From Candidatus Obscuribacterales bacterium (GTDB lineage Bacteria; Cyanobacteriota; Vampirovibrionia; Obscuribacterales; Obscuribacteraceae), in the NCBI GenBank assembly GCA_965228855.1, contig CBDDIJ010000005.1, positions 832,001-896,000 on the forward strand: a stretch of DNA of 64,000 nucleotides. Direction: 5' to 3'. Each line of letters opens with the position of its first letter. The stretch's first letter is position 1. Both the position numbers and the translations under genes were made by a program. Of this stretch, positions 27,768 through 31,127 are shown piece by piece. The notes beneath the pieces are model-generated. The model did no database searches. It had not been told where the DNA came from and saw only the letters and a program-made list of their open reading frames with translations.

Positions 27768-28086
27768 AAACAATGATACGAACACACAAATGCTCGACAG
27801 CAGAGAAAAACCGACTGCGCTACCAGGAACGCAGCAGGTCAACACTCTGTCTGGCACTCGATGAGCGCTCTGGGCAGCGTTCGAATGCACGCGAATGCAA
27901 ACGTCTGTAATCGAACGACGCCTTGAGCGCTAAATCGAGCGCAGTTTCTAAATTATGAACTGGCTTCGCCAAAGTTTTTTTGTCCCCAACAAGAATGCAT
28001 GAATCGCTGTGCGAAACAGACTTGCGGCAACGCGAGTCTGTTTCAATCTTTAAAGACGCTCCTGGAGACCGTTGCGGAGAATAGAA

Positions 28087-28692
28087 TTAACGCGCGCGTT
28101 TCGCTTGTTCCGCCGCAAAAAGAACCAACTCCAACAGCGATGACGCGAGACGTTCGCGTCCCAGCGGCATCGAGTATTTACCGTTCAGAATCTCCTGAGA
28201 GATCATGAAGTTCACCAGGGCACCATGGATGATGCGCGCAACCGCTTCAGGATCCGAGAAGTTTAGATTTGGACTTTCGCGTATGTAATGCGCGAGACTC
28301 TCGATTCCCGGGCGCACGAGCTTTGTCAGGTACATGTCGGCCAACTCCGGAAATCGCCCCGACTCAGCGATTATCATGCGAATCATACCAACGTATTCAG
28401 GGTCATCCATGCGTTGCAATGCTATCTGAGTCATCGTTCGAAAAAACGCGGGCGGTTCAAGTTCCATCAACTCGGCAGTCATTCCGGCCAGCACAAATCG
28501 CTCCATGAGCCGGTCCACGAGCGCCGCAAACAAAGTTTCTTTGTCCTTGAAGTACGTATAGACCGTCTGCTTCGCGACACCACCCTCGGCGGCAATCACG
28601 TCCATATTCGCAGCGTAACCGTCTCGGAGGAAAGCACGCAACGCCCCCTCTAAAATCTTCTCGCGCTTCTTGGCTTGACGTTCTTCGGTCAT
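28087..28692 (-). CDS. TetR/AcrR family transcriptional regulator
   Basis: KILEGALRAF..GY...MDVIAAEGGVAKQTVYTYFKDKETLF HTH; ESGRFPELA C-domain. Confidence 0.93.
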   Translation of the reverse strand: MTEERQAKKREKILEGALRAFLRDGYAANMDVIAAEGGVAKQTVYTYFKDKETLFAALVDRLMERFVLAGMTAELMELEPPAFFRTMTQIALQRMDDPEYVGMIRMIIAESGRFPELADMYLTKLVRPGIESLAHYIRESPNLNFSDPEAVARIIHGALVNFMISQEILNGKYSMPLGRERLASSLLELVLFAAEQAKRAR

Positions 28693-28697
28693 CGTAT

Positions 28698-28719
28698 AAT
28701 CATACTACGCAGTCTGATT
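28698..28719 (-). promoter_or_regulatory. Putative TetR autoregulatory operator overlapping a TATGAT -10
   Basis: Minus strand AATCAGACT-GCGT-AGTATGATT, 5 nt before the tetR ATG. Confidence 0.6.
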
Positions 28720-28747
28720 TCCAGCGATACTCCATTCAATGAATCTA

Positions 28748-28902
28748 TTTTGGCAACGAGGCGTTGCCGGATTTTCGGAAATGCGTCATAGCCAGATAGA
28801 CAAGCCGGGAAATTTAATAGGCGGCGAAGGGCACTGAGCCACGAAACCCTGATTCAGTGGGCCTTTGGGGAGAAGCTTGGCACGCCGGCATATAGTAGGA
28901 AG
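28748..28902. repeat. Intergenic repeat copy 1 (uninterrupted; empty IS110 target)
   Basis: Near-identical to 28913-28951 joined to 30217-30332; contains GGCAACG-AGG-CGTTGCC hairpin. Confidence 0.9.
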
Positions 28903-28965
28903 GTTCACTGGCTTTTGGCAACGAGGCGTTGCCGGATTTTCGGAAAAGCGTTGTACGTTAGAGAT

Positions 28966-29200
28966 TGACAGCAGACCCAATCAATTGACACCAGGTCCTG
29001 CTGTCGGCAAGGCTATCCGAGGACGCGAGGATAGAGAAACGGAAGAAACCAGGAAAAAGCGTATGACCGCGAAGTCAGGCTATGAGGTTTGGACTTCCGT
29101 TTCTGTCTTGTCCTCTGAGGCTGAACACTATCAGATGCAAATCCTAGAACGATTTAGCATGCGTACAAGGCTCGCCCTGACAAGATTCTATCCGCGTCCT
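28966..29200 (+). ncRNA. Predicted bridge RNA of the IS110 element
   Basis: 5' hairpin plus target-binding and donor-binding internal loops with guides matching the flanks and the circle junction (see findings). Confidence 0.85.
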
Positions 29201-29233
29201 GTGTAGGTTGGCAAGTCTAAATGGAGGCGCATC

Positions 29234-30199
29234 GTGATATCACTTGGGATAGACATCTCTAAAGAGACTGTGGATTGCTATCTGCTCTCGGAACGAGGGC
29301 GGAAGTTGCACGCTGACAACTCTGACAGCGGATTTCGGCGAATTGAGAAGTGGCTGAATCAGCACACCGAAAGCGAAGTACAAATTTGCATGGAGGCCAC
29401 TGGAAAGCTCTGGGAGCCACTCGCAGAATACTTCTGCGACAAAGGTTTTGCCGTCAGCGTCGTCAATCCTGTTCAGATCAAAAACTTTGGCAAAAGCCTG
29501 TTGAAGCGTTCAAAGACGGACGCAATTGATGCCGAGGTAATCGCACAGTTTTGCAAACTGATTCAACCGAAGACCTGGACGCCCCTCCCGGACGTGGTCC
29601 GGAAGATTCGCAACATTGAGCGTCACATTGATGCGCTCAAGACCGACCGAACCAGAACCGTGAATCGTACCGAGTCCGGTCGGCTCGACGAACCTGTGAG
29701 TATCTCGCTTCAGCGGCAAATCGAATTCATCAACAATGAGATTTTGCTGCTGGAACAGGCTCGAGACCTCTTGATCAAGTCCGAACCGCAATTTCAGAAC
29801 GATCTCGCCTTACTGCAAACCATCCCTGGAGTCGGTTTGATCTCGGCACTCACGTTTCTCACGGAAATTTCCGGCTTGGATTCCTTCGAGTCGTTGAGAG
29901 AAGTCGAGAGCTACTGCGGCTTGACTCCGGAATTGCGCGAGTCTGGAACTTCTGTTCGAGGGCGTCCGAAGATGTCTAAGAAAGGCTGCAAGCGCCTCCG
30001 GAAAGTTTTCTACATGGCGTCTCTGAGCGCAGTTCGATCAAACCCTGCCATTCAAAAATTCGCGACAAAGTTGGCAGAGAAGTGCAAACCAAGGAAAGTC
30101 ATCTTGTGCGCCGCCATGCGCAAGCTACTTCGCATCATGATGGCGATCTACAGGACAAAGACACCATTTAATCCCAATCATCTAAGCGTTCATTGTTGA
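29234..30199 (+). CDS. IS110 family recombinase/transposase
   Basis: DEDD RuvC-like motifs GIDISK, CMEATG, KTDAID; C-terminal IPGVG and GLTPELRESGTS (catalytic Ser); GGAGG RBS; uninterrupted 321 aa. Confidence 0.95.
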   Translation: MISLGIDISKETVDCYLLSERGRKLHADNSDSGFRRIEKWLNQHTESEVQICMEATGKLWEPLAEYFCDKGFAVSVVNPVQIKNFGKSLLKRSKTDAIDAEVIAQFCKLIQPKTWTPLPDVVRKIRNIERHIDALKTDRTRTVNRTESGRLDEPVSISLQRQIEFINNEILLLEQARDLLIKSEPQFQNDLALLQTIPGVGLISALTFLTEISGLDSFESLREVESYCGLTPELRESGTSVRGRPKMSKKGCKRLRKVFYMASLSAVRSNPAIQKFATKLAEKCKPRKVILCAAMRKLLRIMMAIYRTKTPFNPNHLSVHC

Positions 30200-30374
30200 C
30201 AGCGAACACACTACCTCATAGCCAGATAGACAAGTCGGGAAATTTAGCAGGCGCCGAAGTGTACTGAGCCACGAAACCCTGATTCAGTGGGACTTTTCGG
30301 AGAAGCTTGGCACGACGACATATAGTAGGAAGTCTGAGAGAAGAAAGCCGGCAGGCGGCTTTCCATCGCGCGAC

Positions 30375-31127
30375 TTAGAACGTCGAGCGCATCTTGAACA
30401 GATCGGAGAATGTTTCCCAGATGACTGAGAACTTGCCGCCCGAGGCGCCCTGCGTCAATCTCGGCAGGTGGTCGATCGGAATTTCGATTACTTTGAAGCC
30501 GGCACGCTCTGCTCTGATGCAAAGTTCAGCATCGACGAACGGAGTGTACGAGCGCAAAGTTACTTTGTCGAGAATGGCTTTGCGGAAGAGTTTGATCGAA
30601 TTCACATCTTTATGGCGGTGTCCGTAGAGGACGCGCAGCATCAAGTTATAAACTGCGGATTGGAGCTTGCGGCGCGGCGGATCGTTTCGGTTTACTCTCC
30701 AACCGATGACGAAATCGTGGGTCTTAAGCCCTTCCGCCATAGCGATCAATTCTTTCGGAGCGTACTGATAATCGCCCGGAAGCGAGAATACAAATTCTTT
30801 GGTGCCGGCATGATAGAGTTCGTGAATGGTGGCACCGAACCCTTTATTCACCGGGTGGTTGATCAGGCGAACATGCGGATTGGTGCGGCATTTCGCTTCA
30901 ATCTTTTCAAGCGTTTTATCGCGACTACCATCATTGCAAACAACGATCTCAAAATCCTCGCAGATTTCAGACAACAGCGTGGAGCCGTCATCGATCAGGC
31001 GACCGATGGTTTCCTCGTCGTTGTACGCCGGGATGATGAGCGAAACAGAACTGAGTTGAATCAGTCCGTTTCCGTTAGCTGATAGAACCGGATTTTGCTG
31101 CGACTTCATAGGATTGTGTACCGGCAT
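30375..31127 (-). CDS. Glycosyltransferase family 2
   Basis: SLIIPAYNDE, NDGSRD, NKGFG, GDYQY; start may be ATG 31109. Confidence 0.9.
   Translation of the reverse strand: MPVHNPMKSQQNPVLSANGNGLIQLSSVSLIIPAYNDEETIGRLIDDGSTLLSEICEDFEIVVCNDGSRDKTLEKIEAKCRTNPHVRLINHPVNKGFGATIHELYHAGTKEFVFSLPGDYQYAPKELIAMAEGLKTHDFVIGWRVNRNDPPRRKLQSAVYNLMLRVLYGHRHKDVNSIKLFRKAILDKVTLRSYTPFVDAELCIRAERAGFKVIEIPIDHLPRLTQGASGGKFSVIWETFSDLFKMRSTF

Follow-up and report, generated by a model that had tools for sequence, protein, structure and literature searches.

Two units of a palindromic repeat lie side by side in the window, by which we mean the whole 64,000-nucleotide stretch of Candidatus Obscuribacterales DNA analysed here, and only the second unit carries an insertion sequence of the IS110 type. 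The locus raises the question of how the element reached its site and why the first unit stayed empty. The likely answer, developed below, is an RNA-guided insertion of an IS621-like IS110 into unit 2 of a pre-existing tandem pair, with a graded choice among sites. We refer to the 1265-bp IS110 of the window as IS-A and to a second IS110 in the same repeat family as IS-B. G000 is the source genome, G007 a sister genome, C2, C4, C5 and so on are contigs, and X-numbers denote sequencing runs.

A split repeat unit beside an intact one

28087..28692, − strand: TetR-family gene, flanking; outside the system, anchors the orthologous locus
28748..28902, + strand: repeat unit 1 (empty), with a 52-bp imperfect palindrome at 28751-28802
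28778-28793, + strand: target in repeat unit 1; cut after 28786, position 5 = T at 28782
28891-28898, + strand: TATAGTAG box of repeat unit 1
28913..28951, + strand: repeat unit 2, left half; left target 28943-28951 with core GT at its end, position 5 = A at 28947
28952..30216, + strand: IS-A, IS110 element, 1265 bp; four copies in G000, one in G007
30217..30332, + strand: repeat unit 2, right half; right target CATAGCC at 30217-30223
30321-30328, + strand: TATAGTAG box of repeat unit 2
30375..31127, − strand: family-2 glycosyltransferase gene, flanking anchor

The initial annotation described copy 1 as intact and copy 2 as split by an insert, and the coordinates bear this out (28748-28902 against 28913-28951 plus 30217-30332), the halves of copy 2 being 97% and 91% identical to copy 1 with a period of 165 bp. 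The side-by-side pair is real, but it is no local oddity, being two units of a genome-wide repeat. Three additional IS-A copies in G000 are 99.8-99.9% identical to that of the window, differing at 1, 1 and 3 bases, and the copy in G007 has 11 base differences and identical ends. All five copies occupy one repeat position, GT/CATAGC (the slash marks the cut), and the contigs of run X3, which may be the source sample, reproduce both IS-A junctions with zero differences.

Further copies and genomes without the insertion, which the annotation had named as checks, agree with it: the same ends and the same flanking ..CGT and CATAGC recur in all five copies, and empty alleles were observed in the other genome for four of the five IS-A sites. 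No counterpart of the region of the fifth site, G000 C2:198470, turned up in G007 (91% complete). IS-B has empty alleles in the other genome at 2/3 sites examined. The base-precise ends that had been claimed hold in so far as all copies have them, but the one T common to both junctions means that they can slide by 1 nt on sequence alone; we chose 28952-30216, in agreement with a top-strand cut 3′ of the core as in IS621. With GT as the target core and CT as the donor core, the junctions overlap by a single T, rather than by the two-base CT core of IS621. As to terminal inverted repeats, no inverted pair joins the IS-A ends among the 25 longest listed of 73 pairs.

At the window locus G007 has a single empty unit, with T at position 5. 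This single unit speaks for the idea that the insertion itself made the empty copy, either by duplicating a long target or through an IS-mediated tandem duplication. We regard that as highly improbable, because units 1 and 2 differ at 12 of 155 bases and the IS copies at 0-3 of 1265; the units have diverged far more than the IS copies, and the duplication therefore predates the insertion. At two other tandem loci, moreover, the array is present without the IS in the other genome, and 79 of 205 palindromes adjoin a tandem neighbour without any IS.

Inverted repeats with 14-nt and 26-nt arms also lie downstream of the TetR gene, at 28012-28044 and 27864-27931; these may be terminator-like or a degenerate repeat.

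Recombinase, predicted bridge RNA and unmatched cores

28954..28959, + strand: −10 box TACGTT of a predicted circle-junction promoter
28965..29204, + strand: predicted bridge RNA, with 5′ stem-loop, target-binding loop and donor-binding loop; start inferred
29054..29062, + strand: left target guide AAAAAGCGT; positions 4 and 5 (29057, 29058) vary between copies
29078..29088, + strand: right target guide, 7 nt at 29078-29084, then core-reading AG and handshake GT; 29080-29081 vary in X9
29125..29132, + strand: left donor guide ACACTATC
29162..29171, + strand: right donor guide CGTACA (29162-29167), then core-reading AG and handshake GC
29234..30199, + strand: IS110 recombinase, 321 aa; PF01548 and PF02371, IS621 match E 5e-50
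30196..30216, + strand: IS-A right end; −35 TTGACA at 30196-30201, left donor ending in core CT

In alignments with IS621 and ISCro4 the recombinase retains the DEDD residues and the serine, D7/E54/D96/D99 and S237 falling on the IS621 catalytic residues. Its IS110 membership is seen in the DEDD RuvC domain (PF01548) and in the PF02371 domain with its catalytic serine. In these features, and in its match to PDB 8wt6, it resembles the DEDD plus serine recombinase of E. coli IS621 (Durrant 2024, PMC11208160; Hiraizumi 2024, PMC11208158). The annotation was right about both the IS110 identity and the location of the guides, and sequence comparison confirms 28952-30216 as an intact IS621-like IS110.

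The noncoding ends of IS-A measure 282 bp on the left, upstream of the gene, and 17 bp on the right. The left end folds better than 200/200 shuffles (z −3.2), and nine homologous left ends share a two-loop fold in which 9/39 pairs show two-sided changes (at most 1 when the partners are slid), the structure having been predicted from the same nine-homolog alignment that was used for this covariation count. The loops carry the guides in bridge-RNA order (LTG, RTG, LDG, RDG): a match to the left target lies at 29054-29062 and a complement of the right target at 29078-29084, and 29125-29132 and 29162-29167 read the donor junction. The target guide pair is matched at 15/16 nt, a value reached in 1/2000 shuffles, and the donor guide pair at 14/15 (0/2000). 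A search of 28500-30600 against Rfam gave three weak chance matches, none of them approaching the cut-off.

When the right end is joined to the left end, the sequence TTGACA-17-TACGTT results, with 9/12 consensus bases, whereas the linear form has 1/6 at the −35 position; from this consensus match we predict a promoter reconstituted at the RE-LE junction. Expression of the bridge RNA, the promoter, the strand chemistry and the activity of IS-A would follow IS621, in which a bridge RNA upstream of the gene, a junction promoter and a near-identical donor junction have been described (PMC11208160, PMC11208158). No circle joint was found among the run DNA contigs, none of which joined across the IS or onto itself; this result says nothing about absence.

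In the mechanism that we propose, an IS621-like IS110 bridge recombinase would enter the second unit of a tandem REP-like palindrome pair by RNA-guided recombination. A circular or copied donor junction, ACACTAT-CT-TGTACG, would form the TTGACA-17-TACGTT promoter and drive the bridge RNA, whose target loop would read 9 nt to the left and 7 nt to the right of the cut, and whose donor loop would read the junction. Top strands would be cut 3′ of the core and then exchanged. With a target core GT and a donor core CT, only the T would be common, and the junctions would be fixed from the top strand.

As in IS621 (PMC11208160, PMC11208158), the target lies in a repeated palindrome and G6-C7 precede its core; the GC handshake of the right donor guide would pair with target positions 6-7 after exchange. 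A 7-nt right guide and a GC donor-loop handshake, which were engineered into IS621 for higher efficiency, are natural in IS-A, and the target-loop handshake is GT, compared with AT in IS621.

Two further sets of elements can be compared. IS-B (1256 bp; three identical copies, L020, L021 and L022, on C2 of G000) encodes a protein 52% identical to that of IS-A; it shares its donor ends and RNA scaffold with IS-A and differs from it in the target guides. Its insertions lie at the outer TTTGT-CT/ACG site of the palindrome that IS-A also uses, and their core is an ordinary CT. The AT-core relatives are eight IS110 elements in eight family-member genomes (L003, L037, L038, L054, L066-L069), several of them truncated, with right ends located in 4/8 and no empty alleles available; their right guides match less well (2-5/7 in four elements). 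In the search for more alleles, a metagenome protein scan confirmed 0/59 candidates, a metagenome DNA pattern gave one match, due to chance, viral contigs gave 0/4 and plasmids no match, and 4/401 genomes matched in a class-wide search, with nothing new. The recombinase protein cluster has four members, without context.

The donor has ACACTAT-CT at its end in every element with a located right end, and both right guides invariably have AG as their core-reading bases. In contrast, GT (IS-A), CT (IS-B) or AT (the eight relatives) forms the end of both the left target guide and the left flank. The same CT core in donor and target is found only in IS-B, and neither in IS-A (GT vs CT in 5/5 copies) nor in the AT relatives. 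Recombination between unmatched cores (GT or AT into CT) is probably the normal mode in this clade, unlike in IS621, which has CT in donor and target. As far as the available parts of the published reports go, Durrant et al. altered cores jointly in donor, target and all guides (PMC11208160), and Perry et al. filter for identical cores (10.1101/2025.05.14.653916). Hiraizumi et al. describe the first core base as less conserved and the guide G as held by the protein (PMC11208158), and such a hold would explain the fixed AG. The literature searched, which covered few subscription papers or supplements, gave no account of unmatched natural cores or of guide drift by point mutation; single-base cores may already have been described elsewhere. 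Bridge recombinases are under development for genome writing, and published designs pair identical cores (10.1101/2025.05.14.653916); this identical-core rule would be relaxed by a natural clade in which 9/10 elements combine a CT donor with a GT or AT target.

The junctions also bear on how the strands are processed. In IS621 structures the top-strand cut follows position 9 and lies four bases from the cut in the bottom strand, with positions 6-9 left for repair (PMC11208158, PMC13626964), while steps on the top strand only have been argued for in two preprints (10.1101/2025.10.25.684509; 10.64898/2026.08.31.748434). Donor and target of these elements differ at three of positions 6-9, so that their junctions report on this dispute. 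Non-donor, target-type bases are kept at 16/16 left junctions and donor-type ATCT at 11/12 right junctions, a pattern that fits completion from the top strand. The lone exception is the right junction of the window: it reads A-C-C-T and has the target base, C, at position 7 (30214; X3 has it too), where the other four IS-A copies have T. With this C, pairing to the G of the target-loop handshake becomes perfect. The C may stem from repair of a T:G heteroduplex mismatch or from a plain point mutation, and by the handshake rules it would make the window copy a poorer donor.

Guide alleles and site choice

The annotation had placed a mismatch between the two copies inside the stretch read by the left target guide, and it is indeed there (T at 28782 vs A at 28947, guide 29054-29062). 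Its further suggestion, that this mismatch may explain why only copy 2 was used, can be compared with the occupancy of the repeat. Among the 21 G000 repeat sites with a GT/CATAGC centre, four of them filled, the filled fraction against the window guide is 1/1, 2/5, 1/8 and 0/7 at 1, 2, 3 and 4+ mismatches (exact P=0.016, in tests that are post hoc and cover only five insertion events and four guide alleles). The filled site of the window is the best guide match among those 21 sites. The count left out 51 non-repeat sites with the same centre (44 coding, 7 intergenic), all of which are empty.

At positions 1-5 the left guide reads AAAAA in three copies, AAAAT in G000 C2:198470 and AAATT in G007. 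The AAAAA copies lie on flanks GAAAA, GGAAA and TAAAT, the AAAAT copy on AAATT, and the AAATT copy on CAATT. The T at guide position 5 of G000 C2:198470 comes from the assembly alone and does not appear in the contigs of X3, from which rare variants drop out; runs X6 and X10, from two studies, again show the AAATT allele together with its flank. Run X9 carries two adjacent right-guide changes that predict a CATTCCC target, and CATTCC follows the GT core in 17/410 repeat arms. Four of the 20 variable IS-A sites fall within 14 guide bases, with 0.22 expected (P 6e-5; with stricter backgrounds, confined to freely varying positions, 8e-4 to 1.6e-3); since the guides are unpaired, drift at tolerant positions also raises their variability. 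Over 10 elements the left guide equals its own left flank at 55/70 non-core bases, against a permutation mean of 34 (P 1.5e-4, which is overstated because the elements are related). The guide covaries with the target across homologs.

Position 5 shows both sides of the matter. Guide base and own flank base agree there in 4/5 IS-A copies, and the two copies with a T-5 guide sit on T-5 sites. The site filled in G007 has one mismatch to the G007 guide, and in G000, where it has three or two mismatches to the guides present, it is empty. An early reading, in which the preference idea seemed contradicted, was dropped since the SNPs between copies fall in the guide. On the other hand, the copy at G000 C5:1462675 has an A-guide like that of the window, yet lies on a T-5 site with three mismatches; an identical 16-nt target is present in the empty neighbour at G000 C2:987644 and at the G007 insertion; and copy 1 is empty although it has one mismatch to the AAAAT guide that G000 also carries. 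With 4/21 sites filled, an empty neighbour needs no cause. The suggested explanation thus survives in part: occupancy is higher at better-matched sites and the quality of the match probably affects the odds of insertion, but chance could have given the copy-2-only pattern at this locus. In the proposed mechanism, site choice would be graded, with the right half and positions 7-9 strict and positions 1-6 tolerating up to three mismatches; better-matched sites would fill more often, the A-5 guide would have its better target in copy 2, and selection would favour guide point changes because commoner repeat variants become usable.

Position 5 could instead be neutral, with both copies usable, one struck by chance, and the guide variants representing drift at tolerated positions. 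The low occupancy, the identical empty neighbours at two loci and the A-guide copy on a T-5 site agree with this, as do the occupancies of A-5 and T-5 sites (2/3 vs 2/18, Fisher P 0.08) and the tolerance of the ISPpu10 left guide for distal mismatches (10.64898/2026.03.19.712850). We nevertheless consider neutrality rather unlikely, because guide changes with a readable flank move to the flank's base in 3/3 cases, position 5 changed twice independently whatever the rooting of the three lineages, the double change in X9 lands on a common repeat module, and IS621 screens, in the available parts of the report, point to low mismatch tolerance at all nine positions (PMC11208160). A hairpin formed by the palindrome might be an added targeting requirement, as reported for ISPpu10, and indeed 8/8 insertions of IS-A and IS-B lie in the repeat, a tiny share of the genome, while non-repeat sites with 2-3 mismatches are empty (6 coding, 1 intergenic). 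Such a requirement is possible but doubtful here, since 44/51 of the non-repeat same-centre sites lie in ORFs, where selection alone would remove insertions, and the AT-core relatives occupy genomes in which the repeat was not found.

Quite improbable, in our judgement, is a rewriting of the guides after insertion, with the neighbouring target as template, so that they converge on their own flank. If true, it would explain how IS110 elements gain new addresses; the only noncoding change of G000 C2:198470 relative to its siblings is a guide base that matches its own flank, and both G007 guide changes match the G007 flank. However, other copies retain mismatches at positions 1, 2, 4, 5 and 6, there is no evident enzyme or tract, and the same data are explained by mutation followed by selection at insertion or excision. 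For the preferred reading, RNA-guided insertion with graded site choice, we infer from IS621 that selection would be the cause of guide change.

Insertion of an IS110 in a REP-like repeat is already known, from IS621 and from ISPpu10 (10.64898/2026.03.19.712850). Like IS-A, ISPpu10 and ISPpu9 of Pseudomonas putida are IS110 elements at one REP position, with a permissive left guide and a strict right guide; unlike IS-A, they have a duplicated CT core, another repeat and a demonstrated hairpin gate (10.64898/2026.03.19.712850; PMC12288879). Natural reprogramming between distinct IS has also been published, in ISEc11 vs ISXne4, where changed guides go with changed targets (Siddiquee 2024, PMC11187229), as they do in IS-A vs IS-B and the AT-core relatives. 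In contrast to ISEc11 and ISXne4, which are distinct IS (PMC11187229), IS-A shows single-base steps among 99%-identical copies within one repeat family. Such an allele-level guide series among ~99%-identical copies and the presence of two elements in one repeat add to the known picture, as do the unmatched-core clade and the origin-clustered repeat described below. The IS-A allele set is a natural snapshot of guides drifting to new targets, in which guides tend to match their own sites, and the series provides natural guide-target pairs for measuring the effects of single guide bases on site choice and on new targets.

The host palindromic repeat

The repeat consists of imperfect palindromes of ~52-64 bp, with 231 distinct profile matches in G000; the number is 225 with a cut-off of E < 0.05, and a stricter pattern gives 205. 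It is REP-like in the broad sense of a high-copy, lineage-restricted, mostly intergenic palindrome: the pattern count is 160 in G000, 145 in G007, 1 in G006 and 0 in the other 38 of 41 genomes, and 166/225 matches lie outside crudely called ORFs. As many as 183/225 fall within the first 1.1 Mb of C2, around dnaA (C2:793284) and the GC-skew switch. This repeat-rich, origin-centred domain (C2:1-1100000) has a GC content of 54-57% vs 50% and a coding density of 0.80-0.84 vs ~0.89.

The GTAG and CGTC REPs (Di Nocera 2013, PMC3733652) are likewise species-specific palindromes of high copy number that are mostly intergenic and often arranged in tandem together with flanking DNA, and the words CGTC and GTAG are present in the arms of the host repeat. 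As in the CGTC REPs (PMC3733652), there is no dedicated transposase: the Y1 transposase PF01797 gave no match in G000 (95% complete; control positive in 6/14 genomes), and the search for a mobiliser of the repeat found no resolvase and 17 tyrosine-recombinase matches. The host repeat differs from GTAG and CGTC REPs (PMC3733652) in that its arms have no 8-9 bp stem of their own, and in being concentrated at the origin with a second box at helically phased distances. A CGTC tag followed by an 8-9 bp stem-loop in each unit, as in CGTC REPs, was not found. Within-arm pairing occurs in 9 and 7 of 205 repeats (10.4 and 8.4 expected), compared with cross-arm pairing in 75 and 38 of 205 (50 and 20 expected). 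Compared with the available part of that survey (PMC3733652), the origin-clustered repeat is apparently undescribed, and the literature searched, mostly outside subscription journals, gave no account of the host's repeat or of origin-clustered palindromes.

The TATAGTAG box points away from the palindrome on 237/410 flanks, at distances that peak at 67, 78-80, 88-90 and 99-102 bp, in steps of about one helical turn; a repeat with the box on both sides spans ~230 bp in total. This helical spacing suggests a phased protein-DNA complex. When G007 C3:1-400000 (L072-L091) is compared with G000 C2:566666-992048, 54/116 breakpoints lie ≤200 bp from a palindrome (6% expected), and many of these palindrome-linked breakpoints resemble gain or loss of tandem units.

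A role of the repeat as a substitute centromere was considered and rejected: ParB_N occurs in 3/41 genomes and the repeat is abundant in two, with no link. ParB_N (PF02195) was found in three of the 41 genomes searched, in G000 only on the small contig C4, and G000 and its 40 relatives may lack a canonical chromosomal ParB. The GC content is 0.63 over the initial 100 kb of C2 and passes from 0.46 to 0.64 along C4, compared with 0.50 for the genome; the GC-deviant start of C2 and C4 are possibly foreign DNA or assembly contamination.
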